A stretch of DNA of 64,000 bases from NCBI GenBank assembly GCA_965216565.1, contig OZ244170.1, forward strand, positions 2,400,001 through 2,464,000, written 5' to 3'. The position numbers were made by a program, and so were the translations under genes. Each line of letters opens with the position of its first letter. Positions within the stretch are counted from its first letter, which is position 1. Below, piece after piece: positions 30,003 through 61,921 of the stretch. Below the pieces are notes generated by a model that was given only the letters and a program-made list of their open reading frames with translations, made no database searches and was not told the origin of the DNA. The stretch is from Bythopirellula sp. Its GTDB lineage: Bacteria; Planctomycetota; Planctomycetia; Pirellulales; Lacipirellulaceae.

Positions 30003-30049
30003 TGAATACTCGTGTCGCTTCTTCGGTTATTGAGGTTCAGACTAGTCGA

Positions 30050-32420: not shown

Positions 32421-32463
32421 CACTCTTTGGTTCGAGTTTCTACCTGGCTCGAATGATCAGCGA

Positions 32464-35279: not shown

Positions 35280-35304
35280 GTATTGATCCTAGTAAAGACG
35301 GTTA

Positions 35305-36540: not shown

Positions 36541-36576
36541 AGGGTCCCATCGAATGGCAAAGCCTCGGCGCTCCGA

Positions 36577-37329: not shown

Positions 37330-37368
37330 TTATTTCGCCTTGTGAATCGAAGTAAGTGTGTCACTTGC

Positions 37369-43791: not shown

Positions 43792-46659
43792 TTAATTACG
43801 GACGCGCGAATACTGAGTCATTCTTCGGAATGGCCAGATACCGAAAGCTGAAAGAGTAATCAACAAGGATGCCGGCTCCGGAACCTGTGCAATCGCACTC
43901 AACGTTGCGGTAAAGCCATTCTGTTGTTGCCAAACTAGAAAGTCCAACCCATCAACTCTGCCATCGCCATTGGCATCGCCATCTGAATGATCGGCCGACA
44001 GCGCACCGTAACTCGACTGCCACTGCGCGAGATCGATTTCGTTGACACTACCATCGCCATTGAAATCAGCAGCGAATAGCACATCAAGCGAGACAGCATT
44101 AGCCAAGTAGTTCAAATCCCAGACTAGTCCAGGCGAAAGCGCTGGCAAGAGCGTGGTGTCGAATGTACCTGAAAGGGAGGCTCCGGAAAGAAACTCAAAC
44201 TGATCACCTGCAATCGGTTGGAAGGATCCATCGAGACTTACTTCGAGAGCCCCTTGAATCCCAACTGCATCTAGTACGTCGAGTCTGCCAAACTGTCCAA
44301 TCGCGTCCCCAGCGAGCTTGATCACCAATACCCCTGCCTCCGACTGCGTGTAGTCGCCATCGACATCGACAACCCCTGTGCTTTCAATTTGCAAAGTGCC
44401 TGCCGTGATAATTCCGTCTCCTAGAGTAAGTTGTCCGACAGGACTCACCGCCGAATCGACGGTAATGATGCCACCATTTTCAATGAATACAGATGTCGCG
44501 GAGGTGTCGTTTTTTGGAGTCGCTACAGCAACCGTATAGGAAGCCCAATCGAGTCCTGTGTCGTCATTGACCTGTACATTCACGCTTCCAGACTGCATGT
44601 CTTCGAGAAAACTACCCATATCGATCACTCCGACAAACGTATCGGTCGCATTGATCTCGGTATCCCACCCCAGGTCGGAAAAAAACAACCGATGCTGAGC
44701 GTCGAAGTCGAACAGTCGCACGAAATCGGTGTTGATTAACCCGCCACTCTGCTTGATGGCAAGTGCAAGGAAGCCATGCACCACCTGCTCGCCTGCATCG
44801 AGTGTGTGCTGGATGGTGAAGGTCACGTTTTGGTTGTCAGACAAACTATCCAGTCCCGCAATCGGATGGGAAGAAGAGCCGAGGACTGCCGCCTGCCAAT
44901 TCGGATCGATGAATACATCGTCGATGCTCGCTACTCCGTCATACGTGTAATCGTCGATGTCGCCCACTAAATAATCTCGTAAAGAGACAGTATACGAATC
45001 AACGGGAGCCACTCGAGCGTCCCACTGCTGGGCATCTGTCCAATTGCCGCTACCTGAAAGTGAACGAAACACGGTGATGTCCTGGGCATCACTCGCCTGG
45101 GCGTCGTAAAGACTCGTTGTTCCACCAGCGGTCACTGGTGTGCCATGAGAATCGTAGTTTCCTGACGGCTGAGGACCGAATGTCGTATCCTCGACGATGG
45201 TCCCAGTAGAACCAATAAGCCAATTTTGTGCCGTTGGAGGATTCTGAATGCGAAAACTATCGGCTGTGGAATTCCAAACGACCATGTTCGCACCCGACCA
45301 TCCGTGGGCGGTTCCAAAGCTCCCCCGGTTTCTTGCATTGATGGCATTTCCTTGAACGGTAATGTTGTCGAATAACGTGCCCGTTGCCCATCGTTGGTGA
45401 GGACCGCTATCTGAATTGGCGTTGGTTGCCGTCGATTGGTGAAACACGTTGGGGCCGGGCGGCCTGGTGCTGTTGTTCACAAAATCGTGACGCCCTTCGT
45501 CGGCTTGTGCGTTGGTCACAAATCCCAACTCGCCGCTGAGGTCGTAACTATAGCGACGCGATCCGGTAATTTGGCTGATTGGTGTTTCGCTAATTGCGTC
45601 GTCGACCGTCACCCATTTCGTCCCGGGGTTGGCAACGACCGCCGAGTCACCAAAGTGTGCCGCCGTAATATCCCGAACCCAAACGTTTTGGGCACGATCG
45701 GCGTTCTGGCTACCACCAATCGAGATAAACTCCCAAGCATGATCCTCGTCTGTAGCCGAAGTGAAATCTGTATCTCCGCGAAGATTTTCGATACCTACGT
45801 TTTCGATGGCACCACTCCACGTGTAGCGTCGAATAGTCCCGCCGCCATACTGCTGCTCGAACGAATTGGCCAGCGGTGCATCGACGAAGACGCGATCTCC
45901 CTCAATTCGAGTGATCACACGATCGTACCGCACATTCATGGTTCCCGGTTTCCAGTTCGGGTCGTTGTTGGGGGGATCATCCATTCCTACGGCAACGATC
46001 CAATCTTCGGTACTGGGCCGCTCGATTCGGACCGTGTCGCCTACAGAAAACTCGCCAGGCACGTCAACGCGAAAGCTTCGTGCGCCCGCAGGGACGACCT
46101 TGTCGATCATGTTGCGAGTCGAACCCACGTTGGATCGACCGCCGTTGCCATAGACCCTAATTAAAGGCCTTTGGTTAGGGTTCGTGCCACCAGATAAGGG
46201 ATTACGTCCATGAATAACAGTCCCACCGCCATCGCGTCCCTCGCCGCGTAACACGACGCCACTAGCTCGGATTTCTAGCTGGCTATCGATGTCATACGTA
46301 CCTGCCTGCAGTAGCACCGCCCCGCGATAGCCATCGGGTCCCAACGGCAAAGCGGAGACCTGATCAATCGCCGCCTGGATACTTGATGTGTCGTCACCCG
46401 CAATCGGCGACAGGGTCACGGAGGTCGGCACGTTCGAAGGAATGAGGGAGCTACCACTAGCTCGATACCCCACATTGGAAAAATCGAGGATGTGGTCGCC
46501 CTCGGCATCGGGAACGTAAATTAATCTGCCCGTCACCCCGGTCTTGATCCATTGGCTTTCGACACCAACGCAAATTGAACCACTCATGGTTAACCAACCG
46601 GCGATGATCACGCTTAGCGCCGAGTTCCAGTTACTTCGGATCTGACAGGAGTGAATCAA
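43792..46659 (-). CDS. Surface-anchored parallel beta-helix (pectate-lyase-like) protein with dockerin-like repeats and PEP-CTERM
   Basis: DFSNVGY, GDDT..IQAAID, GVVLRGEG, GRHDF, SGPHQRWATGTLFDN; ADFNGDG/GDANGDG repeats; VPEP tail. Confidence 0.8.
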   Translation of the reverse strand: MIHSCQIRSNWNSALSVIIAGWLTMSGSICVGVESQWIKTGVTGRLIYVPDAEGDHILDFSNVGYRASGSSLIPSNVPTSVTLSPIAGDDTSSIQAAIDQVSALPLGPDGYRGAVLLQAGTYDIDSQLEIRASGVVLRGEGRDGGGTVIHGRNPLSGGTNPNQRPLIRVYGNGGRSNVGSTRNMIDKVVPAGARSFRVDVPGEFSVGDTVRIERPSTEDWIVAVGMDDPPNNDPNWKPGTMNVRYDRVITRIEGDRVFVDAPLANSFEQQYGGGTIRRYTWSGAIENVGIENLRGDTDFTSATDEDHAWEFISIGGSQNADRAQNVWVRDITAAHFGDSAVVANPGTKWVTVDDAISETPISQITGSRRYSYDLSGELGFVTNAQADEGRHDFVNNSTRPPGPNVFHQSTATNANSDSGPHQRWATGTLFDNITVQGNAINARNRGSFGTAHGWSGANMVVWNSTADSFRIQNPPTAQNWLIGSTGTIVEDTTFGPQPSGNYDSHGTPVTAGGTTSLYDAQASDAQDITVFRSLSGSGNWTDAQQWDARVAPVDSYTVSLRDYLVGDIDDYTYDGVASIDDVFIDPNWQAAVLGSSSHPIAGLDSLSDNQNVTFTIQHTLDAGEQVVHGFLALAIKQSGGLINTDFVRLFDFDAQHRLFFSDLGWDTEINATDTFVGVIDMGSFLEDMQSGSVNVQVNDDTGLDWASYTVAVATPKNDTSATSVFIENGGIITVDSAVSPVGQLTLGDGIITAGTLQIESTGVVDVDGDYTQSEAGVLVIKLAGDAIGQFGRLDVLDAVGIQGALEVSLDGSFQPIAGDQFEFLSGASLSGTFDTTLLPALSPGLVWDLNYLANAVSLDVLFAADFNGDGSVNEIDLAQWQSSYGALSADHSDGDANGDGRVDGLDFLVWQQQNGFTATLSAIAQVPEPASLLITLSAFGIWPFRRMTQYSRVRN

Positions 46660-47107: not shown

Positions 47108-48268
47108 ATGTATCACGTCGCCCTGCTAGTTGAGACATCTCGAGAGTACGCTCGCGGGCTTCTTCGAGGAATCGCTCGTTATCATCAGGAGGTCGGCCCT
47201 TGGTCCATCTTCTTCGAGCCGCATGGCTTACACGATCCTCCGCCGGCATGGCTTAAAAGCTGGAAGGGCGACGGAATCCTGGCCCGAATCGATGATCAGC
47301 GGATGTGCGACGCGATATTGGAAACAGGCATTCCGGCGGTCGACCTGCGCGGGGCTCTCCAAGACATTCCCTTGCCGTTTATTGGTGTCGATAATCGCCC
47401 CGTTTCCAAACTGGCATTCGAGCATCTACTAGACTGCGGGCTACGAAATTTTGCATTCTGCGGCACGCCCCAAGGAGAGAATCCGAATCAAGACCTAAGG
47501 CGAGATTACTTCAAGGAACGAGTCGAACAAGCCGGTTACGAGTGCAGCGTGTTTCTCGGCAAAGGTCGAAAGACGCGTTCCCAATCCTGGGAAACACAGC
47601 AACAACACATTGTGGAATGGCTCAAAGAGCTTCCGAAACCGGTCGGAATCATGACCTGCCACGACGATCGAGGGCATGAGGTACTCGATGCCTGTCGACG
47701 GGCGGATTTGGTTGTCCCCGACGAGGTTGCTGTGATTGGCGTGGACAATGACACCTATCTCTGCAATCTGAGTACGCCGCCGCTAAGCAGCATCGACGTC
47801 AATTCTAGCCGTATTGGCTACGAAGCGGCCAAAGTGCTACACCACGCGATGGGCGGGGAAAACACGGCCCCTGGTGCCGAATTATTGGGGCCTCCCCGAG
47901 GCATTGCTGCCCGGCAGTCTACCGACATGCTATCGGTCGAAGACGAAGACGTGGCCTCGGCAATTCGCTATATCCGCGAGCATGCGGTCGAGGGCATCCA
48001 GGTCCGCGACGTTCTAAAACGGGCCAATCGCTCTCCAAGCACGCTGGAGAGAAGGATAAAAAAGCTACTGGGACGCACCATCAAGGCAGAAATCACGCGA
48101 GTACGGCTCTCCCGAGCCAAACTTCTGCTTTGCGAGACGGAACTACCAATCTCAAAAATCGCCCTCCGCACCGGCTTTAGCGAGCCAAAATACTTCTGCG
48201 ACGTGTTCCGCAAGAACGAAGACATGACAGCTAGTGCCTACCGCAATAAGTTCCGGGATCAGATCTGA
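47108..48268 (+). CDS. XylR-type regulator (periplasmic-binding-protein-like sensor + AraC HTH)
   Basis: VALLVETSREYARGLLRGI, WLKELPKPVGIM..D, VPDEVAVIGVDND, PLSSID, GYEAA, RQSTD, TGFSEPKYF..VFRK. Confidence 0.92.
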   Translation: MYHVALLVETSREYARGLLRGIARYHQEVGPWSIFFEPHGLHDPPPAWLKSWKGDGILARIDDQRMCDAILETGIPAVDLRGALQDIPLPFIGVDNRPVSKLAFEHLLDCGLRNFAFCGTPQGENPNQDLRRDYFKERVEQAGYECSVFLGKGRKTRSQSWETQQQHIVEWLKELPKPVGIMTCHDDRGHEVLDACRRADLVVPDEVAVIGVDNDTYLCNLSTPPLSSIDVNSSRIGYEAAKVLHHAMGGENTAPGAELLGPPRGIAARQSTDMLSVEDEDVASAIRYIREHAVEGIQVRDVLKRANRSPSTLERRIKKLLGRTIKAEITRVRLSRAKLLLCETELPISKIALRTGFSEPKYFCDVFRKNEDMTASAYRNKFRDQI

Positions 48269-48576: not shown

Positions 48577-50235
48577 ATGTCCCTGATCCAGACCAAGGAT
48601 AGTCGGAACAAGAAAACCGTTCAAAACCGGGTCGCTTTTAAGCCAAAAAGCCTGATCCTTTCGCTCTTAGTTCTATCACTCGTGTTGCTTGTATCTAGCA
48701 GCAGTTCTTTGGCCGTGGTAATCACCGATGGGTTCGGTGACGCTGATCTCGATAATAATGGGGTTATCAATTTCTACGACACCGATGCAGGTGATAGTTG
48801 GTTCGATGATCCCAATATGGTCAATGACAACTTCACTTACGTTCCTGCTTATTTGCAAGATCCCAATGGCAATGGACCAACTAACCCTGAAGTCACTTCC
48901 GCACTCGACGCTGGTGACGTAGGCATCAAATGGTTCCAAATGCGTGGCTTTACTGGGAATAATGATGGCCGTTCGAAGCCAACAGCACGGATCGTTGACG
49001 ACGCTCAAGGTTCGATGATTGAAACCTCGCCAGTCGATCCAAACACAAACGGATTAGGCAAGGCAGCGATCGATTCGGGTTATGCATTGTCGATGAACTC
49101 GCGCGGTAGAGGCAGCTCTGTTGCTGGGTTCTTTGGAGAGAATGTAGCTCTCGGAACCGAACTGGGAGATTCGATCAAAGTCTCCTTCGATTGGCGTATT
49201 TGGCGCGATGCACCTGCACTCAACGCCTTCCTGCAGCCCATCGACGCCGAACTACGCTTTGGTATTTACCAAGACACCGACAATCAAATAGGTTCAGATA
49301 ATGGCTTGGCCGGACGTTCCGAGGACACCAACGGTGACTTTTTTCTTGATCCAGTCGCAGCAACTTGGGGTGAAGAAGAAGGCTGGTTCGAAGGTGGTCA
49401 AGAGGGTGGATTTGGAGACAGTGTCGCTACCGACGAAGTTGGTTCAATCGGCGACGGAGGCTGGTTCGGAGCTGTTACCATCGTAGACCCCAATGGATCG
49501 TTCCCCCCGACTGCCCTTCCGGAAGGGGGAGGATGGAGAGTCCGCGAGGAATCTAACCTGAATGATCCCAACTTTGGCATTAACGACAAGCGAATCCTAC
49601 AAGGCTCGGCCGACGTCGATACAGTCGCCAATCCAAGTGAAGCGAACCCTGGCACAGGAGACTTTGGGCTAACCAACCTCCTGGTAGATAAGGTTTACAA
49701 CTTATCGCTGGAACTCGTGCGAGCGGAGGATCCAAACGGTGCGGCAGCAATCACGGCGCATTTGTCTGCCTTTGCTAAAGACGATCCGAACACGGTCTTT
49801 ACCCTCTCGGGCACCGAACTGTTTACTCAGACCGACCCAAACGTAGACAACGTGTTGCAGTCTGTAGACACTTTCGACTATTTCGCCATCCGCAATACGG
49901 GTACCGATGATTTCGATATGTTGATCGACAACTTCCGATTGGAAACATTCAGTGCTGGAGCTGACAATGCGGATTTCGACGGTGACGGTTTGGTCACGGG
50001 ACTCGATTTCCTCATTCTCCAACAGAACATCGGCCTCAGTGGTCAAACCGACAACAGCAATGGAGATGCTAACGGAGACGGCGTGGTCGGCAGTGCTGAC
50101 ATTGCAATCTATGAAAGCCAATATGGTGCGGCTCCGCCACTTGGTGCCTCGGTCAGTGCCGTCCCAGAACCCTCAACGCTCCTGCTGTTTTTGCTAGGAC
50201 TGTTTGGGCTTAGACCAGTTCGCTTTCGTCTCTGA
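48577..50235 (+). CDS. PEP-CTERM protein with dockerin-like repeats
   Basis: Signal peptide; ADFDGDG.V.GLDFL and GDANGDG repeats; VPEPST tail. Confidence 0.85.
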   Translation: MSLIQTKDSRNKKTVQNRVAFKPKSLILSLLVLSLVLLVSSSSSLAVVITDGFGDADLDNNGVINFYDTDAGDSWFDDPNMVNDNFTYVPAYLQDPNGNGPTNPEVTSALDAGDVGIKWFQMRGFTGNNDGRSKPTARIVDDAQGSMIETSPVDPNTNGLGKAAIDSGYALSMNSRGRGSSVAGFFGENVALGTELGDSIKVSFDWRIWRDAPALNAFLQPIDAELRFGIYQDTDNQIGSDNGLAGRSEDTNGDFFLDPVAATWGEEEGWFEGGQEGGFGDSVATDEVGSIGDGGWFGAVTIVDPNGSFPPTALPEGGGWRVREESNLNDPNFGINDKRILQGSADVDTVANPSEANPGTGDFGLTNLLVDKVYNLSLELVRAEDPNGAAAITAHLSAFAKDDPNTVFTLSGTELFTQTDPNVDNVLQSVDTFDYFAIRNTGTDDFDMLIDNFRLETFSAGADNADFDGDGLVTGLDFLILQQNIGLSGQTDNSNGDANGDGVVGSADIAIYESQYGAAPPLGASVSAVPEPSTLLLFLLGLFGLRPVRFRL

Positions 50236-50369
50236 TAGTTTAGCAGTTATCCAGAGGCGCTATTAAGTTTGTATTTTTGTTTAACAGGAAGAAGCAATTG
50301 TAGTTATTCAAATTTTCTTGTTCACAACGTGTGTTGTTGTGGACGCCTTTTCCTTGGGAGGTAGATCTA

Positions 50370-51635
50370 ATGAAGTGTGCTCCTAGTATCAAAGTGAGAA
50401 TGCCTAGAGTGATCGCACTGGTTGCGTTGACCACGCTCTTTGCATACTCGGCAACTGCTTCGTGGGCAGTTGTAATTAAAGACGGATTCGGTGATGGCGA
50501 CCGGAATAATGACGGCGTAATTGGCTTCTACGACACGGACGTCAACCTGAGTGATACGTTTAATCAAACGACCGGCGATCCTAACAATCCAGGTCCAGAT
50601 GAGACGATCAATAACAAGGGTCTCATTGAGGTCACTTCCGCTGAAGATGCAAGCGATGTAGGCATCGTTTGGTCCGCCACTCGTGGATTTACCAGCAGCA
50701 ATTCGGGAGATCCTAAGGCCAACTTGAAGATCGTCAACGATAACGTTCCTACCGGAAGCGAAACCAACGCATGGATTCATGGCAATGGATACGCACTTGG
50801 TTACGAAGCCAAGGGTACGGGCAGCTCCATGATTGGTGCATTTGGCCAGTCTGTAGCTATCGGTCCTAATATTGGGAACCGTATTCGAGTTTCGATCGAC
50901 ATGCGTTTCTGGATCGAATCTAACAATCCAACTGGTCTCGCTAATCCTGGTGAAATCCGTTGGGGCTTGTTCCAAGATACTGACAACGAACTCGGCACGT
51001 TCGACAACGCCGGCAAAGTAGACCCAAATTCTGGAATTCAAGCTTCGGTCGAATGGGGTGCAGAAGATGGTGATTGGCGTTCCAACTCACCTGGTCCTGA
51101 AGGTGACAAGGGTATTTGGACAGAAATTAACACAGGTCCAAACGCCAATGCCGCTGACATGCGTATTAAGTTCGAGAACAACGTCGCTGGCATCAATGGC
51201 ACCAGCAACAATGGTCGTTTCCTCGAAGGTAGCGGTGCCAGCAATACGGTTGGTTCCGGCGGCGATGTTGGTACTGTCGCTTCGCCTTCCGGCGATGGCC
51301 CTGGTGGCACGATTGCAACCATTGGAACACATACGCTAACGATGGACTTCATCCGCGTCGAAGATCCTTCTGACCCGAACAACACACTTGTTCAGGTTGC
51401 AAGCTTTGTAGACGGTAATGAGTTGTTGAGAGATGAAATCAAACCTGGTGATACGGGTGCAGCCATTTTGCAGCCAGCTCCAGAGAGTTTTGATTACATT
51501 GCTCTTCGCAATTCGAGTGGCGACGTTGACTATGTATTTGACAACTTCGTGATTCGCAACTTGGTTCCAGAGCCAACTTCCCTGCTGCTAGTTAGCATGG
51601 GCGGTTTTGCTCTATTGGGTTATCGACGTCGATAA
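50370..51635 (+). CDS. PEP-CTERM protein, paralogue of 48577..50235
   Basis: GGAGGT RBS; signal peptide; shared blocks AVVI.DGFGD.D..N.GVI.FYDTD, EVTSA.DA.DVGI.W, QDTDN..G, FDY.A.RN; VPEPTS tail. Confidence 0.85.
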   Translation: MKCAPSIKVRMPRVIALVALTTLFAYSATASWAVVIKDGFGDGDRNNDGVIGFYDTDVNLSDTFNQTTGDPNNPGPDETINNKGLIEVTSAEDASDVGIVWSATRGFTSSNSGDPKANLKIVNDNVPTGSETNAWIHGNGYALGYEAKGTGSSMIGAFGQSVAIGPNIGNRIRVSIDMRFWIESNNPTGLANPGEIRWGLFQDTDNELGTFDNAGKVDPNSGIQASVEWGAEDGDWRSNSPGPEGDKGIWTEINTGPNANAADMRIKFENNVAGINGTSNNGRFLEGSGASNTVGSGGDVGTVASPSGDGPGGTIATIGTHTLTMDFIRVEDPSDPNNTLVQVASFVDGNELLRDEIKPGDTGAAILQPAPESFDYIALRNSSGDVDYVFDNFVIRNLVPEPTSLLLVSMGGFALLGYRRR

Positions 51636-51729: not shown

Positions 51730-51848
51730 TGTGCAGCAACTTCAGAGAACGCAACTTTGTTATGCTTCGTGTTGCGGTTGGGGCTTCGGGGAAATACCGA
51801 GTCTTCTAGGTACCCCCTTATTATTTCATTTTTGTGGAGATATCGACG

Positions 51849-52886
51849 ATGCGTGGTTTTGCCTTATCGAAGAACAAAGGATGCTCTGCGAATAGAGGAT
51901 TCACTCTAGTCGAGCTTCTTGTAGTGATCGCAATCATTGGCGTTTTGGTAGCGTTATTGCTACCGGCAGTCCAGGCTGCCCGCGAAGCGGCAAGACGCAT
52001 GCAATGTACCAATAACGTAAAGCAGTTGATCCTTGCCGATCTCGGGTATGAAGATTCCAAGGGCAATCTCGTTCCAGCGCGACTAGGACCCGATGGTACC
52101 GGTTCCCCAGAAGTCCGACACCTTAGATATAAGACCGATCGTTCCGGAGCAAGCGGATTTGTGTTGTTGTTACCTTACTTGGAACAAAGCTCTCTCTTTG
52201 ATCAATTCGATGTGTATAAGAACAACAGCATCTTTCCGTCGGACCAAGTAGGTAACGAACCAGGGACTTCAAACTGGAGAACATTGGCTCGCATGCAAGC
52301 CATTGGAGTTCGACCAGATTTTATCGCATGCCCCTCCTCAGGTGATGAACCTCAAACCCAGATAAAATCCTATCAAAGTTGGGACGTCGTTCCTGCTACT
52401 GGCAACTACGCCTTCATGGGAGGGCATCGCGGGCCCAATGGTCAAAACCCAGTTAACGCTTGTTTAACAAAACACCATAATACGGGTGCTCACTTGTATT
52501 GGACTACCAATACCCTTAAGGAGATTGAGGATGGAACTTCAAATACAATCTCCATTGGAGAAGTGATTGATAGTCATACACGTAACAGCTCTAACATTTG
52601 GACCTATGTCCTTCGTTACGCCGACTCCTTCCGCGTGACTGATGTTGCCGTCAATACTCCACCGGGAGTTGAAGCCAAGCGCGTTGGTTCTAACGCTGCT
52701 GTTGTGAACGGCGCATTTCAAAGTCGCCATCCTGGGGGTGCTGTATTCGGTTACCTTGATGGACATGTGATCTTTGTTGACGAAGGTATCGGTACGGTTG
52801 AGTATCAGAATTTATCTACTATCGCCGGTGAACCTCGCTTCAATGACATCGACGACGAGCAATTTTGCTCAGAAAACAGATACTAA
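51849..52886 (+). CDS. DUF1559 prepilin-type (N-methylation motif) protein with H-X9-DG motif
   Basis: GFTLVELLVVIAIIGVLVALLLPAVQAAREAARR.QC.NN.KQ, LLPYLEQ, DGTSNT...GE, SRHPGGAVFGYLDGHV. Confidence 0.95.
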   Translation: MRGFALSKNKGCSANRGFTLVELLVVIAIIGVLVALLLPAVQAAREAARRMQCTNNVKQLILADLGYEDSKGNLVPARLGPDGTGSPEVRHLRYKTDRSGASGFVLLLPYLEQSSLFDQFDVYKNNSIFPSDQVGNEPGTSNWRTLARMQAIGVRPDFIACPSSGDEPQTQIKSYQSWDVVPATGNYAFMGGHRGPNGQNPVNACLTKHHNTGAHLYWTTNTLKEIEDGTSNTISIGEVIDSHTRNSSNIWTYVLRYADSFRVTDVAVNTPPGVEAKRVGSNAAVVNGAFQSRHPGGAVFGYLDGHVIFVDEGIGTVEYQNLSTIAGEPRFNDIDDEQFCSENRY

Positions 52887-52935
52887 TGATGTCAAATCAG
52901 CAGGAATAAGTTTTACCTTAAGGCGTTTACAAGAT

Positions 52936-53472
52936 ATGAATTCCTATTTCCGACCGTTTTTTGTGATTGTTGCAGCATGCCAACTGATTGGTTGTCAGGA
53001 AGCTCCTCATCAGAAGTTAATCACTGCATCTGGAACAGTACTTATTGATGGTGAGCCTCTTTCCAGTGGTACGATACGTTTCGTGCCCGAAAAAGGTCGT
53101 CCCATGAATAGTGCGATATTGGGAGACGGTTCTTTCCAGCTTGGCTCCAACTCTGTAGCTGATGCGGATGGCGTGGATGGAGTACCCCCCGGCAAATACC
53201 AGGTAGCAATTTCTTCCTCTATTATTGAAGGCGATGAAGGCGATAAGGTCCGCTGGTTAGCTCCCAGGCATTATGCAGACTTTCGTACCTCAGACATCGA
53301 GATCGAGCTTGAAGAATCTACCGACGACCTGCTAATCGAACTCACCTGGGAAGGGGCCGAAGAGGAGTCTGTCGACGAGGGTCCGGAAGATACCGATCCC
53401 TCTGCCGAACAAGACGAGAATTCTGCAGAACCCGAAGATTCTAGTGCTGACGAGCAGACGAAGGAGCAATAG
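52936..53472 (+). CDS. Lipoprotein, carboxypeptidase-regulatory-like fold (DUF1559 partner)
   Basis: LIG-C lipobox; SGTVLIDGEPL..G.I.FVP, DGVPPGKY.V.I, P.HY....TS; acidic tail. Confidence 0.85.
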   Translation: MNSYFRPFFVIVAACQLIGCQEAPHQKLITASGTVLIDGEPLSSGTIRFVPEKGRPMNSAILGDGSFQLGSNSVADADGVDGVPPGKYQVAISSSIIEGDEGDKVRWLAPRHYADFRTSDIEIELEESTDDLLIELTWEGAEEESVDEGPEDTDPSAEQDENSAEPEDSSADEQTKEQ

Positions 53473-53473
53473 G

Positions 53474-53947
53474 TTGTCTACACAAATCCATTCCCACAAT
53501 AGTTCCCTGCCGTACCGCTTTTTTCACAACCAACGATACTCAGCACTGTTGAGTTTCTTGTCTGTGTTGATATTGCTTTCCGCCGGTTGTGGCGACGGGC
53601 GGCCCGCACGAGTAACGGTCTCCGGGCAAGTGCTCATTGATGGCAAACCTTTGCAGCAGGGCAATATTAAGTTCGTTCCGGAAGGCGCACGACCCTCTGC
53701 GGGAACAATCGATGAGGATGGTCGTTTTACCCTGACATGCTTTGACGGCAACGACGGCGTGATACCAGGAACTCATCGAGTGCAAATCTCAGCTAGTGAG
53801 ATCCTGGACAACAGCAAGGTGAAATGGTGGGCGCCTCGAAAGTACTCGGACTTTCGCACCTCTGAACTCGAGTTCGTAATAAACGAACCCACCGACGACC
53901 TAACAATTGAACTTACCTGGGATGGCGGCAAGCCATTTGTAAAGTAG
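53474..53947 (+). CDS. Lipoprotein, carboxypeptidase-regulatory-like fold (second paralogue)
   Basis: SAG-C lipobox; VSGQVLIDGKPL..G.IKFVP, DG.IPG.H.V.I, PRKYSD..TS; TTG start after AAGGAG (uncertain). Confidence 0.85.
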   Translation: MSTQIHSHNSSLPYRFFHNQRYSALLSFLSVLILLSAGCGDGRPARVTVSGQVLIDGKPLQQGNIKFVPEGARPSAGTIDEDGRFTLTCFDGNDGVIPGTHRVQISASEILDNSKVKWWAPRKYSDFRTSELEFVINEPTDDLTIELTWDGGKPFVK

Positions 53948-53964: not shown

Positions 53965-56268
53965 ATGGACTCTAGCACCACAGGAATACGACGAGCGCAA
54001 TTTGCGATTGCTGCGTTGGTGCTAACAATTGTACTGCAGCCTAATTCGCATGCTGCTGACTTTTTTGTGACTAATATCTCCCAACTAAACACAGCAGTTG
54101 GCAATGCCGTGGCGGGTGATACGATCACCATGCAGGATGGCAATTGGACGAACAATAACGTCAGCTTCGCAACGGATGGCGATCCGAATAACCCGATTAC
54201 TCTACGAGCCGAAACTCCAGGGCAGGTGATTCTTAATGGGTCGTCAACTCTCGATATCTCTGGCGATTGGTTGGTGGTCGATGGCTTGCGGTTCGAAGGA
54301 GGTGCGCTCTCCGACGGTTCGAACGCTATCGTTGAATTTCGGGGTTCCAATGGCGAGGCCACGAATAGCCGCTTCACCAACTCAGCGATCATCGGCTATA
54401 ACCCAGCCAACATTAACGACCGTTATCATTGGGTCGAAATGTTTGGCACCAATAACCGCGTTGATAACAACCGGTTCGAAGATCACAACCATTCGGGCGT
54501 GACCGTAGTAGTACGGCGTGACGACACTGGCGCCGACAATCACCTGATCGATCAAAATCACTTCGTCGACCGTCCTGAAGGGAACGGCAACGGCTGGGAG
54601 ACGATCCGCGTTGGAACGAGTACCGAATCATTGAGCAACTCGTTTACTACAGTAGAAAATAATCTGTTTGAGCGTGTTGACGGTGAAATCGAGATCATCT
54701 CGAGCAAATCTGGTGAAAATATTTACCGTTACAATACGTTCCGCGAATCAAAAGGAACCCTCACCCTCCGTCATGGAAACGACAATTTGGTAGAAGGCAA
54801 TTTCTTTCTTGGCTTAGGCAAAGATGGTAGTGGGGGCGTCCGCGTCATCGGTGAGCGGCAGACGGTCGTCAACAACTATATTGGAGCTGTTGACGACCGC
54901 GCCGATGGAGCAATTTCGATCTCGGCCGGGGTGCAAGGATCGGCTGTCAACGAGTATTTCCAGGTCAAAGACGCTGTCATCGCTCACAATACGATCGTCG
55001 CCACTTCCGATGCCATGATCACCTTTGATCATGGCTTGGGTAGTAGTGGTCGGACGTTACTCGCAGAGAATGTGACTATTGACAACAACCTCTTCTTTAG
55101 CAATGGCTCGACTATTTTTGAGGGCACCGAAGGCACAGGTTGGAGTTGGGCCGGTAATATCGCTTTCGGAGGGAGTCTTGGTCCCAAGGCCGGGGTCCCG
55201 TCCGGTGAGATTAATGTGGTTAATCCTCAGATGCAGTTCGAGACTTCGACTGGTCTTTGGCGGCTGAGTTCAACCAGCCCGGCTATTAATGCCAGCCCCG
55301 TTGACTACAGCAGTACTATTTCCCACGACATGGATGGCCAGGCCCGTATTGGTGTTTTGGATGTCGGTGCTGATGAGTTTTCCGCCACCACAATTGTCCG
55401 CAAGCCATTTGTCGCGGGCGATGTCGGTCCTGGTTGGTTCTTTGACCCCAATGGCGGGGGCGATCCGAACAATGGAAACGGTGGGGGAGGGGGTTGCATT
55501 GCCAGAGGTTGCGCCATTCAGGCTGAAGACTATACCTCGATTCTCGATCCTGATAGCAATGGGCTGACATGGTCTACCATTTCCGATCCTAATGCTCTCG
55601 GCGGCCAAGCGCTACAAGCGCCGAATGGCGATCGGGTGGAGCTGCCCCAAGAATTACACGATACGATCGCCGTCTATGACTTAACCTTCGAGCAAGCAGG
55701 CACCTACCGGGCCTATTATCGAGCTAAGGGAGATGGCGGCAGTACTGATAGCATATTTGTTCCCGACGATTTCAACGTTGACCCAGACAACAACGAGTCC
55801 ACATCTAGTAACAATAAATTCCGCTGGGAAGTGGGAGACACGTTTACCATTTCCGCCGGCAATGTCGGTGTACCCTTGGAGTTTCGCATCGGAATGCGCG
55901 AACAGAATAACGTTTTTGATGCACTAGTGCTCGATCTTGACTTGTCCTTGTCAGCTTCAGAATTAAACGCCTTGTTCGATATTACCATCGTAGAAGCCGA
56001 TTTCGACGAGGATGGTGACGTAGACCACGACGACTTGCTAGCCTGGGAGACCGGATATGGGACATCCTCAGCCGCCACTCATATGGATGGCGATGCCAAT
56101 GGAGATGGAGCCGTCAATGGGCTCGATTTTTTGATGTGGCAAGAGCAATACACGGGTTCCAGTGCCCCGCTTTCTGGCCTTTCGCAAGTTCCCGAACCTT
56201 CATCAGCAGTGTTAGTCATGCTGTTTGCACTTAGCCTAAATGTACATATAAGAAACAGAAAGCCATAG
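53965..56268 (+). CDS. PL6 (chondroitinase B-like) polysaccharide lyase, probably alginate lyase, with C-terminal jelly-roll module, dockerin-like repeats and PEP-CTERM
   Basis: GNGWETIRVGTS, NNLFE..DGEIEIISSKS (catalytic Lys), GTLTLRHG (catalytic Arg), GGVRVIG; AIQAEDY module; VPEP tail. Confidence 0.9.
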   Translation: MDSSTTGIRRAQFAIAALVLTIVLQPNSHAADFFVTNISQLNTAVGNAVAGDTITMQDGNWTNNNVSFATDGDPNNPITLRAETPGQVILNGSSTLDISGDWLVVDGLRFEGGALSDGSNAIVEFRGSNGEATNSRFTNSAIIGYNPANINDRYHWVEMFGTNNRVDNNRFEDHNHSGVTVVVRRDDTGADNHLIDQNHFVDRPEGNGNGWETIRVGTSTESLSNSFTTVENNLFERVDGEIEIISSKSGENIYRYNTFRESKGTLTLRHGNDNLVEGNFFLGLGKDGSGGVRVIGERQTVVNNYIGAVDDRADGAISISAGVQGSAVNEYFQVKDAVIAHNTIVATSDAMITFDHGLGSSGRTLLAENVTIDNNLFFSNGSTIFEGTEGTGWSWAGNIAFGGSLGPKAGVPSGEINVVNPQMQFETSTGLWRLSSTSPAINASPVDYSSTISHDMDGQARIGVLDVGADEFSATTIVRKPFVAGDVGPGWFFDPNGGGDPNNGNGGGGGCIARGCAIQAEDYTSILDPDSNGLTWSTISDPNALGGQALQAPNGDRVELPQELHDTIAVYDLTFEQAGTYRAYYRAKGDGGSTDSIFVPDDFNVDPDNNESTSSNNKFRWEVGDTFTISAGNVGVPLEFRIGMREQNNVFDALVLDLDLSLSASELNALFDITIVEADFDEDGDVDHDDLLAWETGYGTSSAATHMDGDANGDGAVNGLDFLMWQEQYTGSSAPLSGLSQVPEPSSAVLVMLFALSLNVHIRNRKP

Positions 56269-56295
56269 AAACCGTTGCTAAAAGGAAACAAACAG

Positions 56296-57666
56296 ATGCC
56301 CTCAGACAAATCAAAACCAGTTACGTCGGATCGTCGCGAGTTTTTCAAGAAATCTGCTCTCGCGGCAGCGGCGGTCGCTCCCTACTACGTTTCCGCCTCA
56401 GCTTTCGGTGCAAACGCACCGAGCAACCGGATCACCATGGCCTGTATTGGTGTCGGCAATCAAGGTTTTCCGGTCATGAAACGATTTCTCTCCTACGACG
56501 ACTGCCAGGTAGTCGCCGTCTGCGACGTCAATCGGGGCAGCAATGGCTACAAGGATGACAAGCATTTTTATGGTCGAGAGCCAGCCAAGAAAGAGGTGGA
56601 GAAGCAGTACGGCAAGAGAAAAGACTCGGGCTCCTTCAAAGGCTGTGACGCCTATAACGATTTTCGAGAAATCATTGAGCGAGATGACATCGATACGGTT
56701 GTAATTGCCGCTCCTGATCATTGGCATAGCGAGATGACCGTGCGTGCCGCTGAGTCGGGCAAAGACATCTATTGCGAGAAGCCACTCGGGCTCACCATTG
56801 GTGATCAGCAAGCCATGGTGAATGCCGTCAAGAAGAACGACGTCATTCTGCAAACCGGTAGCCACGAACGCTCCAATCCCAATGTCCGCAAGCTAGTTGA
56901 ACTCGTTCAGAGTGGGGCACTCGGAGAGATTAAACGCGTTATCTGCAATGTGGGACGCCACAACATGATCGGCCCCGGTCCCGGCTGGAAAGAAATGCCA
57001 GTTCCGGACGGATTCGATTACGACATGTGGTTGGGCCCCGCGCCAGACGCCCCTTATCACAAGGATCGATGCCTGTACCGTTTCCGCTTTATCTACGACT
57101 ATGCCGGCGGCCAGGTCACCAACTTCGGTGCCCATTCACTGGACATGGCCCAATGGGGTTTAGGCATGGACAAATCCGGTCCCGTTCACGTGAAACCGAG
57201 ATATGCACAATTCCTTCCCGAAGGCAGTCTATTCAATGCTGCTCTGTTTACTCACTTTGTTTGCAAGTACAGCAATGGAGTGGAAGTTGAATGTGTGACG
57301 GGTGAACCCGCTGTCCGTTGTCAATTTGAAGGCACCGAAGGAATTGCCCGAATTGACAATCAAGGTCGCGAATTTGTATCGATTCCCGAGAGTATCAAGA
57401 ATTCGAAATTTGGCACCGATACTCCGGAAATCTACAAGAGCAACGATGATCATCAGAGAAACTTCCTCGACTGTGTAAAGTCGCGAGAAGAACCCAACGC
57501 GTCTGTCGAAGTTGGTCATCGCAGCGCTACCGTGTGTCACTTGGGCAATATCGCCTTGCGTCTCAATAAAGAACTAGATTGGGATCCAGATGCCGAGAAG
57601 TTCGAAGGTAGTGAAGAGGCAAATTCCATGATCAATCGTCCCACTCGCAAGTCCTGGCACGTTTAA
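56296..57666 (+). CDS. Tat-exported Gfo/Idh/MocA oxidoreductase
   Basis: DRREFFK; IGVGNQG, VAVCDV, PDHWH, GKDIYCEKP, DYDMWLGPAP, NFGAHSLD. Confidence 0.92.
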   Translation: MPSDKSKPVTSDRREFFKKSALAAAAVAPYYVSASAFGANAPSNRITMACIGVGNQGFPVMKRFLSYDDCQVVAVCDVNRGSNGYKDDKHFYGREPAKKEVEKQYGKRKDSGSFKGCDAYNDFREIIERDDIDTVVIAAPDHWHSEMTVRAAESGKDIYCEKPLGLTIGDQQAMVNAVKKNDVILQTGSHERSNPNVRKLVELVQSGALGEIKRVICNVGRHNMIGPGPGWKEMPVPDGFDYDMWLGPAPDAPYHKDRCLYRFRFIYDYAGGQVTNFGAHSLDMAQWGLGMDKSGPVHVKPRYAQFLPEGSLFNAALFTHFVCKYSNGVEVECVTGEPAVRCQFEGTEGIARIDNQGREFVSIPESIKNSKFGTDTPEIYKSNDDHQRNFLDCVKSREEPNASVEVGHRSATVCHLGNIALRLNKELDWDPDAEKFEGSEEANSMINRPTRKSWHV

Positions 57667-57736: not shown

Positions 57737-59197
57737 TTGAAACAAGAGCAACTCAAGCAGTCTTCGGCATCGTCATCTGTCAGCGCAAAGCCTACAGACA
57801 TTCGTCTGCGAGGAGCAGAACTCTATTTTCTCCCAGTAGAGACCCGCATCCCGCTGAAATTCGGCACTGAGACTCTTACTTCTGTTACTTGCGCAAGGGT
57901 TAGAGTTATTGTCGAAGATAGAGAAGGGCGTCTCGCCAGTGGATGGGGCGAAACTCCGCTCAGCGTCCAATGGGTCTGGCCAAGTGACGTGCCTTACGCA
58001 ACTCGTCACAACGCACTCAAGGATTTCTGCGAACAGCTGACCTCTGCCTGGGCCTCATTTTCGTCCTTCGGCCACCCGCTAGAACTCGGCTATGAATTTC
58101 AGCAAACGATTCTTCCTACGCTGCTAGGTGGTTTCAATCGCGACTGCGAAGCTGAGGAACGCATCCCTAAGCTTGCTTCCCTGTTGTGCTGCTCGCCCTT
58201 CGACATCGCGCTTCACGATGCTTTTGGCGTGATGCACGATATCTCTGTCTACGATTCATACACGGAACAATACCTCAGCCGGGACCTGGCAAGCTACTTA
58301 GAGCCGACTGAGGGCGAACCGAACCCGTTCGTAGGCAAATATCCTTCCGATTACTTATCGAAGAATCCAAAACAAAGCCTTCCCGTTTGGCATCTGGTGG
58401 GAGGCCTTGATCCTCTGGATGATTCGCAGCTCAACGGCAACAAAGTGGACGATGGCGAGCCGTATCTGCTGAGCGACTGGATTCGTCGGGATGGGATTAA
58501 TTGTTTGAAAGTGAAACTTCGGGGCAATGACGCCCAATGGGATTATCAACGAATCGTTCAGGTAAGTGAGATTGCTTCGGAATTTGGCCCCTACACGCTA
58601 AGCACAGACTTTAATTGCACCGTAACGGATCCTCAGTATGTAAACGACATTCTAGATCGACTGTCTGCAGAGCATCCGGATTCCTTTAAGTCGATCCTCT
58701 ATGTAGAACAACCGTTTCCGTACGATCTCGAATCCTACAGAATCGACGCACATAGCGTGTCAGAGCGAAAGCCATTGTTGATGGACGAAAGCGCCCACAC
58801 ATGGGAATACGTCCGATTGGGCCGAGAGTTTGGCTGGGATGGGGTCGCTCTGAAAACTTGCAAAACCCAAACAGGGGCCATTCTGATGCTTTGTTGGGCC
58901 AAAGCGCATGGCATGCACGTGATGGTGCAAGACTTGACGAATCCCATGTTGGCTCAAATCCCGCATGTTCTGCTTGCCGCCAACGCGGATACCATGATGG
59001 GAGTAGAATCCAACGCGATGCAATTCTACCCGCGTGCATCCCTGCCCGAAGCGAAGGTGCATCCGGGTCTGTATCAACGCCGCAAAGGCGTGCTCGATCT
59101 CTCTACTCTCAGTGGCCCTGGATTTGGTTATCGAGTTGATGAAATTCAGCGCACTCTCGGCAAACCTGTTGCCCGCTTCGGCATCGCTGCCGTCTGA
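57737..59197 (+). CDS. Enolase superfamily (mandelate racemase/muconate lactonising enzyme-like) protein
   Basis: GWGE, DIALHDA, KVK, DFN, EQP and DES metal ligands, ALKTCK; start uncertain. Confidence 0.85.
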   Translation: MKQEQLKQSSASSSVSAKPTDIRLRGAELYFLPVETRIPLKFGTETLTSVTCARVRVIVEDREGRLASGWGETPLSVQWVWPSDVPYATRHNALKDFCEQLTSAWASFSSFGHPLELGYEFQQTILPTLLGGFNRDCEAEERIPKLASLLCCSPFDIALHDAFGVMHDISVYDSYTEQYLSRDLASYLEPTEGEPNPFVGKYPSDYLSKNPKQSLPVWHLVGGLDPLDDSQLNGNKVDDGEPYLLSDWIRRDGINCLKVKLRGNDAQWDYQRIVQVSEIASEFGPYTLSTDFNCTVTDPQYVNDILDRLSAEHPDSFKSILYVEQPFPYDLESYRIDAHSVSERKPLLMDESAHTWEYVRLGREFGWDGVALKTCKTQTGAILMLCWAKAHGMHVMVQDLTNPMLAQIPHVLLAANADTMMGVESNAMQFYPRASLPEAKVHPGLYQRRKGVLDLSTLSGPGFGYRVDEIQRTLGKPVARFGIAAV

Positions 59198-59221: not shown

Positions 59222-61921
59222 ATGGGCGCTCGAACTGTATTCTTGGCCTTGTTGGCCTTCTTGCTTAGTTACTGCTGCAATTCAGCATCGCAAGCGGCCG
59301 AGCTTGGTACCGTCTATTGGGAATCGGCCCATCTCTTAAACGTAAAAGAGCGTTCTGCGCATCCCGATCAAGAGCTAAAGCAGAGTCTTGATCTCCTGGA
59401 ATCGAATGCAGAGTTGGCTCTCCGGCGGGGGCCTTATTCCGTAATGGATAAGAAGGAAGTGCCTCCCAGCGGCGATAAGCACGACTACATGAGCTTCAGC
59501 CGGTACTGGTGGCCCAATCCCGAGACTGAAGACGGTTTGCCATACATTAGGAAAGATGGCCAAGTGAACCGCAAGCTTCGTCAAAGGGGAGATCGTGATC
59601 GCGTCGGCATGCTGATGGAAGATGTCGAGACTTTATCGTTAGCGGCCTTCCTCTTGGAAAAAGAATCCTTCGCTAATCACGCGACGAAACTCATCCGGGT
59701 TTGGTTTCTCGATCCAAAAACACGGATGAACCCCAACCTAAAATATGGCCAAGCTGTGCCTGGTCGCTCTGTTGGACGCGGCGTTGGCATCATCGACACT
59801 CGCGGGTTCCTAAAAATCTTGGACGCGGTCGCTCTACTGAGTTCAATGGATGCGATTGAAGAAACCGAAGTGGCGCAACTTCGCGAGTGGTTCTCGGAAT
59901 ATCTCGACTGGCTCCTGACGAGTGAACTTGGCATTGATGAAGCCGCTCGCGAGAACAACCACGGCTCTTGGTATAGAGCACAGACCGCCAGGATCGCGCT
60001 ATTTGTTGGCAAGAAGGACACGGCATCGGAAATCGTCGAGAAGATCCGTCAAAAACGTATTGCAATGCAGTTTGAACCCGACGGGAGCCAACCGGAAGAA
60101 TTGGCGCGGACCCAATCTCTGCACTATAGCCTCTTCAACCTTAGTGCCCTATCGGTGGCAGCACGAGTAGGTGAGCATCTCGGCTTAGATCTTTGGAGCT
60201 CAGAAAACGGCGACAGTCTGCGGCCGGGAATCGACTTCTTATTGCCTTACTTAAACAAGAAAGAAAAGTGGCCGCACCCACAAATACACGATTACTCTAT
60301 GTCTCGTGGAACCGTTAATTTGCTGCGAATGGCCTCGATTCGTTATGACGATACAAAATATCTGGAGCCGATCAGCGAGAATAGCATCCGCCATCCTGAG
60401 TTCAATTACGCGGAGCTGTTGTTTCGCAAAAAAGATGGTTCCGACAAAACGCCTCGAGACACACGGATCGAAATCTCCACAAATCAGAAAGTTGGCAAGC
60501 CGAAGTACGATCTGCCAGACATTTCGGGGTTTACCAGGGAAAGTATCAAGGAGATGGTTCCAACTGAAAGGGAAGGGACCGCACAAGTAGGACCAACAGC
60601 AGGCGAAGCAATCCTCCGCGAGACCTTCCGCAAAGATCGTCTCAAAGACATGCAACAGAGACAGGGGACGAAATCAACTCAAGCCATCAAGTTGAGCGCC
60701 GGTGCTGTTTCTCTCCAGGATGTCGTATTGCAAATTGACAACGAGGAGATTATCTCTTCTGCTGCAGGCGTGGTTACGGTGCGGCTTCCCATTTTAATCG
60801 AGGCAGACGCCGCGTTGATTGTCGAGGGAGCATCGACCAAGGAAGTCCGATTATCGACAGATAGAGGGGCCTTAATCGCTAACGCTGGTCGGCTGTTCAT
60901 TCTGGATACGCAAGTCACGTCTTGGGATGAGCAATCGGGTTCGCCTACCGAGTGGAAAAGTAAAGAAAACTTCCGCCCATTTATCTCCTCGTATATCCGC
61001 TCCCAAACATTTCTGTCCGGCAGTGAATTTGTAAACTTGGGCTACCATGCGCCCACTTCTTACGGCCTGAGCCTGTCGAGCCAACCAGAACGCGAAGACC
61101 CGACCAAGAGAGCGCAATGGCCAACTGGCATCCTTGTCGACAACGAGTTCCGAGGTTTGTACTACGGCTTTTACTCGTATGAAGCGCGGGCTGTGAAGAT
61201 CATTGGCAACACCTATACCGACTGCATTCTGTACGGCATCGATCCTCACGATCGTTCCACCGAACTCGTCATTGCTCGAAACACTGCGACGGGTACGTTG
61301 GAGAAACACGGCATTATTGGCTCGCGTGGCATCAGCAACAGTTTTATCTTCGAGAACGTCTCCCATGACAATCACGGATCGGGAATCATGCTCGATCGCC
61401 AGTGCAAAGGAAACATTGTTTGCAACAATAAGGTATTCAACAACGGGCAGGGAATCGCAATTTACGAAAGCCGCGGCAACATCATCGCTGAAAACATGGT
61501 GGTGCAGAACAAGAAGTCAGGAATCCGAGTCCGCAATAGCCAAGGGACCGTTGTTGTGGAAAACGAAATTGTGGCGAACGGCGACTATGGGTTGGAGATC
61601 TATGCAAAGCAGCTCGACGATCATGCCAAACGCATGAAGCGAGGAGACTTATACGACGATTTCGTCTCGGTTTCTGTTTTCGGAAACGTGGTTGTGGGAA
61701 ATCAGGGAGGTATTGTCAAAGGCAATAACGTCTCCTATTTGGCAATGCGAGACATTCAAACTAAGACTAATCTAGACCAACTCGAAGCGAGTACGGGGCT
61801 AGCAAGTATCTCTCTCTACGACCAGGAAGACACTAGCTTTGGAAGCGAACTCAAGCAGTACTCTTCGCAGCTCGACCAGGTATTCGACGACTCACTTCCC
61901 TTAGTAGAGCTGCGACGATAA
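59222..61921 (+). CDS. Secreted fusion: PL38-type alginate/glucuronan lyase + AlgG-type mannuronan C5-epimerase
   Basis: N-half: PPSGDKHDYMS..RYWWP, PYIRKDG, TRMNPNL.YGQ, NNHG, ELART.SLHYS.FNL. C-half: LPDISGFT, RLPI, RLS.DRGA, FRPF, YYGFYSYEA, YGIDPHDRS, KHGII.SR, GIRVRNS. Confidence 0.85.
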   Translation: MGARTVFLALLAFLLSYCCNSASQAAELGTVYWESAHLLNVKERSAHPDQELKQSLDLLESNAELALRRGPYSVMDKKEVPPSGDKHDYMSFSRYWWPNPETEDGLPYIRKDGQVNRKLRQRGDRDRVGMLMEDVETLSLAAFLLEKESFANHATKLIRVWFLDPKTRMNPNLKYGQAVPGRSVGRGVGIIDTRGFLKILDAVALLSSMDAIEETEVAQLREWFSEYLDWLLTSELGIDEAARENNHGSWYRAQTARIALFVGKKDTASEIVEKIRQKRIAMQFEPDGSQPEELARTQSLHYSLFNLSALSVAARVGEHLGLDLWSSENGDSLRPGIDFLLPYLNKKEKWPHPQIHDYSMSRGTVNLLRMASIRYDDTKYLEPISENSIRHPEFNYAELLFRKKDGSDKTPRDTRIEISTNQKVGKPKYDLPDISGFTRESIKEMVPTEREGTAQVGPTAGEAILRETFRKDRLKDMQQRQGTKSTQAIKLSAGAVSLQDVVLQIDNEEIISSAAGVVTVRLPILIEADAALIVEGASTKEVRLSTDRGALIANAGRLFILDTQVTSWDEQSGSPTEWKSKENFRPFISSYIRSQTFLSGSEFVNLGYHAPTSYGLSLSSQPEREDPTKRAQWPTGILVDNEFRGLYYGFYSYEARAVKIIGNTYTDCILYGIDPHDRSTELVIARNTATGTLEKHGIIGSRGISNSFIFENVSHDNHGSGIMLDRQCKGNIVCNNKVFNNGQGIAIYESRGNIIAENMVVQNKKSGIRVRNSQGTVVVENEIVANGDYGLEIYAKQLDDHAKRMKRGDLYDDFVSVSVFGNVVVGNQGGIVKGNNVSYLAMRDIQTKTNLDQLEASTGLASISLYDQEDTSFGSELKQYSSQLDQVFDDSLPLVELRR

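Follow-up and report, generated by a model that had tools for sequence, protein, structure and literature searches.

A 64,000-nucleotide window of the Bythopirellula sp. genome GCA_965216565.1 (contig OZ244170.1, positions 2,400,001 to 2,464,000 of the forward strand; genome G000 of our set) carries near its end a single uninterrupted open reading frame (ORF), which runs on the forward strand from an ATG at 59222 to a TAA at 61921. Its 899-residue product joins an N-terminal polysaccharide lyase domain of family PL38 to a C-terminal right-handed β-helix of the type seen in AlgG, the periplasmic mannuronan C5-epimerase of Pseudomonas and Azotobacter. The fusion is conserved and apparently undescribed, and both of its parts are known families. 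The original prediction had proposed this architecture from the letters of the sequence, and the ORF and all of the motifs that it named lie where it placed them: NNH starts at residue 245, LPDISGFT at 431 (nucleotide 60512), FRPF at 584, YGFYSYEA at 648, DPHD at 674 (within YGIDPHDRS, residues 671 to 679; DPHD is encoded at nucleotides 61241 to 61252), KHGII at 695, and GIRVRNS at 767.

PDB, Pfam and AlphaFold/Foldseek comparisons agree on the identity of the two halves. Pfam places PF05426 (Alginate_lyase) at residues 73 to 350 (E = 1.6e-84) and a β-helix at residues 649 to 796. Against the PDB, the N-half matches 3NFV (4e-80) and the Bacteroides ovatus lyase BoPL38 (8BDQ, 4e-66), whereas the PL5 lyase A1-III matches at 1.5e-3 and an AlgL profile built from nine operon proteins yields 23 bits; by sequence and fold, this half is PL38-like and not of the PL5 type. 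The C-half aligns over residues 428 to 830 with Pseudomonas syringae AlgG (4NK6, 2.6e-83), as had been claimed. An AlphaFold model built from a 34-sequence alignment has a mean pLDDT (predicted local distance difference test) of 87.9 and a pTM (predicted template modeling score) of 0.60. When this model was searched with Foldseek (template modeling [TM] values normalized by target length), AlgG structures were the top four matches (TM of 0.92 to 0.94), led by 4NK6 (3.3e-31, TM of 0.94, root mean square deviation of 2.4, 36% identity), and PL38 structures came next (TM of 0.84 to 0.86). The low pTM suggests that the two domains have no fixed mutual orientation. The halves are alike in composition (GC of 0.513 and 0.505; GC3 of 0.57 and 0.58). 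The protein has no PEP-CTERM tail, which points to a periplasmic location. Against the NCBIfam equivalog NF038177 the C-domain scores 330 bits, below the cut-off of 700, which is narrow, since the AlgG of a complete Endozoicomonas alg operon reaches just 414 bits. As the C-half falls short of the equivalog cut-off and is not part of an alg biosynthesis cluster, it should be called AlgG-type and not AlgG, while by its sequence it looks built to work like AlgG.

The architecture recurs. Among the best 120 of 164 matches, 37 clusters (90% identity) carry both domains over 85 to 100% of the query; 36 of these lie at 45 to 68% identity, and the remaining one, at 99%, is a strain variant. A strain variant from an algae metagenome of a separate study, X5, spans the whole gene on one 4260-base contig with 18 substitutions that amount to 6 amino acid changes, its ORF being free of indels and stops. 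X1 and X4, which may derive from the source of the window itself, are left out of this support. An assembly artefact, which would have undone the original prediction, is ruled out by these clusters together with the independent contig. Named homologue sources are Planctomycetota, Bythopirellula sp., and Pirellulimonas nuda. Taken with the DUF1559, DUF1501, and PSD1 genes of the window, these names point to a planctomycete host, probably one of the Lacipirellulaceae. In a FastTree phylogeny of 244 AlgG domains (398 columns, midpoint root; 281 input sequences, from which duplicates and those not covering query positions 110 to 370 were removed), the AlgG-type domains form a clade of 53 sequences (support of 1.0, stem of 0.42) in which 39 fused and 14 stand-alone members are intermixed. 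Those stand-alone members that were inspected have their own signal-like N-termini, and a strand at the end of the fusion linker is also seen at the N-terminus of stand-alone members. The branches adjoining the clade have supports of 0.05 to 0.84, too low to place a donor. Fused and unfused members are likewise intermixed in a tree of 96 PL38 domains, and we infer that fusion and fission, or loss, may have occurred more than once. In two other proteins, P0040 and P0041, the N-terminal partner of the clade's AlgG domain is not PL38 but another domain, some 290 residues long, which in P0040 has no Pfam match and looks cupin-like by eye.

Both active sites are intact. The N-half keeps all nine mapped active-site and tunnel residues of BoPL38 with an offset of +4: Y95, D112, Q177, E240, N246, H247, R296, H301, and Y302 correspond to BoPL38 Y91, D108, Q173, E236, N242, H243, R292, H297, and Y298. 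In BoPL38, H243 and Y298 are the bases, acting with Y91, Q173, E236, N242, R292, H297, and D108 (bioRxiv 10.1101/2024.12.11.627697). Eight of the nine are invariant in 36/36 fused and 20/20 unfused PL38 domains of the locus described below, and H301 is conserved in 35/36 and 19/20, respectively. As for the C-half, YG(F/I)DPH(D/E) is the motif of mannuronan C5-epimerases (PMC8824271, PMC4444821), and for AlgG the DPHD histidine has been proposed as the base, with the donor water held by Tyr314 and the carboxylate neutralized by an Arg (PMC4444821). With an offset of +45, fixed by the D317A structure 4NK8, the base maps to H676 of the fusion and the donor-water Tyr to Y671. The neutralizing arginine, which we take to be Arg345 of AlgG, corresponds to R702. 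YGIDPHD (671 to 677) and R702 are invariant in the clade; Y648, Y651, Y671, D674, P675, H676, D677, R678, H696, S701, R702, D725, R726, E749, and R771 are each conserved in 53/53 clade members (100%) and in 84 to 100% of 191 outgroup AlgGs. Overall, the C-domain is conserved about as well as the N-domain (mean identity to the query of 55.6% versus 57.6% across 36 fusions, r = 0.92).

These residues bear on one part of the original prediction, that the AlgG fold may have been repurposed as a lyase or as a binding module. That the domain is a non-catalytic module binding or guiding long polymannuronate (polyM) chains for the lyase seems quite improbable to us. AlgG does have a long binding groove and, going by the title of a 2003 report by Gimmestad, is said to serve Pseudomonas structurally as well as catalytically. 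Nevertheless, no clade member (0/53) has lost the catalytic His, Asp, Tyr, or Arg, every mapped catalytic residue being retained, and 14 members stand alone. The lyase half of that suggestion has fared better and is weighed below.

Within the family, the AlgG-type domain occurs in 8 of 120 genomes and the PL38 domain in 41; no AlgG-type domain was found in 400 other genomes sampled from the phylum (E ≤ 1e-10). In all eight AlgG-bearing genomes of the family, the domain is placed in one conserved uronate-catabolic locus (Table 1), so the degradative context that had been proposed holds beyond the window. The core of this locus consists of an XylR-like regulator, PEP-CTERM proteins, DUF1559, two small secreted-type proteins, PL6, a Gfo oxidoreductase, an enolase-superfamily gene, and PL38; beside it lie a TIM-barrel gene, an SDR, an NRAMP-like transporter, and a 955-residue secreted protein. 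Three metagenome fusions share the same upstream genes. The gene set varies, G009 having no PL6 match and G540 having a PL7 in the locus with its PL38 and PL6 elsewhere. The arrangement varies as well: AlgG-type and PL38 domains are fused in G000, G004, G009, and G486, and separate but adjacent in G032 and G524; in G470 and G540, AlgG occupies another place in the locus. Because the same AlgG clade stands alone in the same locus and most PL38-bearing genomes do without it, the fusion is incidental or optional, and what matters more is the move of an AlgG clade into catabolism.

Table 1. Positions in the window of the fusion ORF, its parts, and the genes of the surrounding locus
Feature	Position	Strand	Basis or remark
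PL38 lyase and AlgG-type β-helix fusion	59222..61921	+	899 aa; Pfam, PDB, Foldseek
Probable Sec signal peptide, about residues 1-25	59222..59296	+	By eye; hydrophobic helix 2-19 in AlphaFold model
PL38 (α/α)-barrel lyase domain	59300..60427	+	PDB matches, BoPL38 residue mapping
Linker, about 25 residues	60428..60502	+	pLDDT <50 at 407-412
AlgG-type right-handed β-helix	60503..61918	+	YGIDPHD 671-677; H696, R702, D725, R726, R771; clade-specific Q743, T612
Enolase-superfamily (MR/MLE) gene	57737..59197	+	Directly upstream in most loci examined
Gfo/Idh/MocA oxidoreductase	56275..57666	+	Conserved in locus
PL6 lyase, dockerin-like and PEP-CTERM-like tail	53965..56268	+	PDB
DUF1559 gene and two small paralogous secreted-type genes	51834..53947	+	Conserved in locus
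Two PEP-CTERM proteins, no assigned function	48577..51635	+	
XylR-like AraC regulator	47108..48268	+	Conserved with locus, 67-78% identity
955-aa secreted protein, candidate further lyase	43792..46659	-	Conserved with locus, 53-65%
TIM-barrel isomerase-like gene, SDR, two NRAMP-like transporters	33564..38280	-	Travel with locus in relatives
kdgK-like kinase, GH88-like, SDR, eda, flavin oxidoreductase	27124..33549	-	Downstream uronate catabolism; AraC gene among them on +

The departure from biosynthesis is seen in what these genomes lack. Biosynthesis genes were searched with alg-operon profiles for Alg8, Alg44, AlgK, AlgE, AlgJ/X, AlgF, AlgI, AlgD, and AlgA; in G000 there was no match to Alg8, AlgK, AlgE, AlgJ/X, or AlgF and only weak, partial HlyD-type matches to Alg44, which extends to the whole genome what had been claimed for the window. 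An AlgD-family dehydrogenase and an AlgI-like MBOAT are present but lie more than 0.5 Mb away among unrelated genes. Alignment searches found Alg8 in 0/8 AlgG-bearing genomes (positive in both controls, G543 and G058) and ALGX in 0/8 (positive in 2/3 other genomes); completeness is 92 to 95% for seven of the eight (94% for G000) and 72% for G486, so that the synthase is not found rather than proven absent. Besides G000, four of the eight are in 1 to 4 contigs. Outgroup AlgG, by comparison, lies beside Alg8, Alg44, AlgJ/X, or AlgF at 23/27 genome loci and 59/65 metagenome loci (82/92 together), the six metagenome exceptions being contigs of 3 to 6 kb. Fifteen of the 27 genome loci supplied the profiles and match by construction, with Pfam as independent confirmation; the metagenome count is independent of them. 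Given the unfound synthase in eight genomes and the company that outgroup AlgG keeps, the clade looks like an AlgG that left biosynthesis, an editing domain probably recruited to help digest seaweed alginate.

A biosynthetic role, in which the fusion would be an AlgL/AlgG-like pair for an undetected, divergent polyuronate synthase, we regard as highly improbable. It could appeal to the frequent position of AlgG next to a PF05426 lyase in alg operons, to the dehydrogenase and MBOAT of this nearly complete genome, and to the Alg8-type locus of G058, a member of the same order. However, the synthase genes just listed were not found in G000, nor Alg8 and ALGX in any of the eight genomes; the dehydrogenase and MBOAT are distant; and the lyase is PL38, not PL5/AlgL type. 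The G058 locus (L035:3370-9962) has a UDP-glucose/GDP-mannose dehydrogenase, an Alg8-like synthase (1.9e-107), and a 1126-residue β-helix protein in a row and is possibly a polyuronate synthesis locus. Other AlgG arrangements were seen among the outgroup. Alpha- and gammaproteobacterial genomes have non-canonical alginate operons (L062, L065, L066, L069 to L071, L075, L078, L079, L055) in which AlgG sits C-terminally in proteins of 800 to 1700 residues; L075 and L079 have AlgX-AlgG fusions, the N-parts of the other such proteins have no Pfam match, and Sel1-repeat proteins and a BBP2 porin accompany several of these operons. Tandem algG-like genes occur at L054:8147-11440 and L067:5289-8476, with no alg synthesis gene within 10 kb in L054.

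The immediate neighborhood of the fusion differs somewhat from that originally described. PL6 is indeed close by, but the GH88-like gene, kdgK, and eda are not near neighbors, lying about 26 to 31 kb upstream on the opposite strand; the enolase-superfamily and Gfo genes adjoin the fusion instead. The best PDB matches of the PL6 are alginate lyases (2e-70), with chondroitinase B at 1e-24. The GH88-like protein scores 25.5 bits, slightly below the cut-off of 26.6, and the Gfo oxidoreductase weakly matches the glycoside 3-dehydrogenase BT_2158. The Gfo, enolase-superfamily, TIM-barrel, SDR, and GH88-like genes may constitute an unusual route for unsaturated oligo-uronates. The 955-residue protein has no catalytic Pfam domain and no PDB match, and its Atlas look-alikes (at 0.98) are unnamed or pectate-lyase-superfamily-like clusters, making it a candidate new lyase family.

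This gene content raises the question of whether the locus acts on another polyuronate, β-1,4-glucuronan or some other algal or bacterial polymer, which the AlgG domain would epimerize or cut. PL38 includes glucuronan lyases (PMC11890756), G000 has no PL7 or PL15/17 match, and the Gfo, enolase, TIM-barrel, and GH88-like genes stand in place of a recognized oligoalginate lyase. Against this, the locus PL6 is nearest to alginate lyases, the AlgG locus of G540 includes a PL7 alginate lyase, others of this family lie about 15 to 20 kb from locus genes in G464 and G471, and all mapped positions of the PL38 active site agree with those of BoPL38, which is an alginate lyase. We therefore consider another substrate improbable.

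With both folds, their catalytic residues, and the catabolic context in place and no alginate synthase found, we hypothesize that the substrate is alginate, that the C-domain epimerizes rather than cuts, and that the domains cooperate. An AlgG would have moved from its biosynthetic operon to a uronate-catabolic locus conserved among planctomycetes, giving rise to a secreted, probably periplasmic two-enzyme module for alginate digestion. The C-domain would take the C5 proton from mannuronate (M), with His676 as the base, Arg702 neutralizing the carboxylate, and Tyr671 and water as the donor, and would thereby convert some M to guluronate (G) within M-rich stretches, creating G-M and other G-containing linkages. 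The N-terminal PL38 and the neighboring PL6 would cut these new linkages faster, by β-elimination, and the unsaturated oligomers would pass to the hydrolase and oxidoreductases of the locus, KdgK, and Eda. The biochemistry of the two families is suggestive: BoPL38 reaches a kcat of 9.1/s with polyG but 0.9/s with polyM, favors the G-M bonds of polyMG, and acts on polyM only after a lag, which was read as epimerization before cleavage (bioRxiv 10.1101/2024.12.11.627697), while AlgG puts single G residues into polyM (PMC12269086) and so makes exactly the G-M bonds that BoPL38 prefers. G000 has no PL7 or PL15/PL17-type match that would cover M-blocks, the fusion has Leu670 at the place of the lyase-promoting Arg of AlgE7, and in G540 the locus that holds AlgG also holds a PL7 alginate lyase. 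On this evidence, our leading reading, held at even odds, is that the C-domain epimerizes M to G and thereby improves cutting by the lyases.

Several points weigh on the other side. Lyases and epimerases share the catalytic motif (PMC8824271, PMC4444821), which therefore cannot separate the two activities. AlgG binds at least 9 residues (PMC4444821), so an attached endo-lyase would destroy its substrate, and BoPL38 by itself already cleaves polyM, polyG, and polyMG (bioRxiv 10.1101/2024.12.11.627697). PL38 also counts glucuronan lyases among its members (PMC11890756). The mapped PL38 sites are identical between fused and unfused members, so no G-specialization is visible, and 33 of the 41 PL38-bearing family genomes have no AlgG-type domain. 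Two groove positions with conserved D and K in biosynthetic AlgG (D387 and K255 in 4NK6 numbering) have changed, position 743 being Q in 50/53 clade members versus D in 180/191 outgroup sequences and position 612 being T in 48/53 versus K in 173/191. Finally, PL6 lyases can take the place of the domain: in G459 a PL6 domain is fused to the same locus PL38 in the AlgG slot, and in G467 a PL6 follows the NRAMP gene, at the exact site taken by AlgG in its congener G470. The G459 domain has Lys and Arg motifs, the roles of which we presume to be those usual in PL6.

These exchanges with PL6 count toward the chief alternative, that the AlgG domain became a lyase, or an AlgE7-like lyase/epimerase, cutting before M, so that the fusion is a two-lyase enzyme with complementary bond preference; we consider this possible but rather unlikely. 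A second PL6 within 20 kb on the same contig was found in 10/16 AlgG-less genomes checked versus 1/8 AlgG-bearing ones, although the Fisher p of 0.033 overstates the difference because the 16 were hand-picked from 33 and are mutually related, and G486 holds both the fusion and a second PL6. PDB similarity did not discriminate the specificity of the second PL6. Exchange of the slot with PL6 fits equally an epimerase meeting the same need. The clade has a long stem and conserved residues of its own (Q743, T612, R593, R624, R656, and H801). The residue before the catalytic Tyr is Arg or Lys in 15/53 clade members and 2/191 outgroup sequences, and in AlgE7 the Arg at that place, R148, makes the enzyme a lyase (PMC8824271). 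The fusion protein itself, however, has Leu670 there, and the equivalence of position 670 with R148 rests on the shared motif only. PmC5A, an alginate epimerase of P. mendocina that we take to be of the AlgG type, has secondary lyase activity. Epimerizing or cutting, the domain would in either case target mannuronate in the service of degradation. Returning to epimerization, we give slightly less than even confidence to the broader proposal that the clade is a dedicated catabolic polysaccharide C5-epimerase, fused to PL38 or separate and interchangeable with a second PL6, that rewrites the M/G sequence of foreign alginate to suit digestion by a few lyases, and in which some Arg-before-Tyr members may have become lyases.

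Several known systems resemble the fusion in part. The C-domain shares with AlgG its fold, co-linear over about 400 residues, as well as the YGIDPHD motif and the His/Arg/Tyr set, but it forms a separate clade, lies in a catabolic locus fused to PL38 with no synthase complex found in the genome, has Q743 for D387 and T612 for K255, and falls short of the AlgG equivalog. BoPL38 (8BDQ, 9FHT to 9FI6) has the fold and the nine mapped residues of the N-half but is a single-domain alginate lyase whose epimerase side activity (about 4%) comes from the lyase site, whereas the fusion has an added AlgG domain distinct from the lyase. AlgE7 and AcAlgE2/3 of Azotobacter are, like the fusion, β-helix proteins with YG(F/I)DPH, have both chemistries in one polypeptide, and are tied to alginate breakdown (cyst germination); unlike it, they use one shared active site, are of the calcium-dependent AlgE type, and come from producers acting on their own polymer. 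The C-domain shares 12 to 14% identity with AlgE4/E6 in structure alignments. PsmE of Pseudomonas syringae, judging by title, also joins an epimerase to a second alginate-modifying enzyme, but it is AlgE-type, its partner is an O-acetylhydrolase (esterase), and its host is a producer. SjAly (PL41), weighed as an earlier example of a lyase derived from AlgG, was set aside because it was modeled on PL9. In PMC12992946, "AlgG" is mostly a substrate name.

A literature search, most subscription journals being outside its reach, found neither a PL38-AlgG fusion nor an AlgG in a degradation locus, in line with the novelty originally supposed, and in the reviews consulted AlgG figures solely as a component of alginate synthesis (PMC4444821, PMC12269086). 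Conserved among apparent non-producers and linked to lyases, this AlgG clade makes "epimerize to degrade" directly testable. Either outcome would be useful, be it a polymer epimerase that serves catabolism or a lyase of a new type built on the AlgG fold. The clade offers AlgG-type enzymes evolved without the synthase complex, which are of interest for tailoring alginates, and the Leu, Val, Arg, or Lys before the catalytic Tyr forms a natural series for lyase versus epimerase outcome; if this holds, the Arg-before-Tyr members would capture the transition from epimerase to lyase in one family.

Some minor observations concern the lyases and the rest of the window. In G459 a further PL6 comes after the PL38-PL6 fusion (L091:13155-16019). 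The two domains are swapped in P0072 (PL6-PL38), while P0039, like six proteins similar to it, is a tandem of two PL38 domains. G000 has a second PL6 (C1:633027-635264), 52% identical to the locus PL6, from which it lies 1.8 Mb distant and away from all other locus genes. A scan for promoters and terminators gave results at chance level. Directly downstream of the fusion, positions 62117 to 63831 hold a DinB/UmuC-type polymerase and a small overlapping ORF, which lie outside the conserved locus in relatives. Three adjacent ORFs on the reverse strand at 15174 to 18001 (386, 263, and 280 residues) are, by eye, what we take to be a three-Cys-motif partner/phage Gp37-Gp68 radical-SAM-like pair and a DUF6602-like protein.

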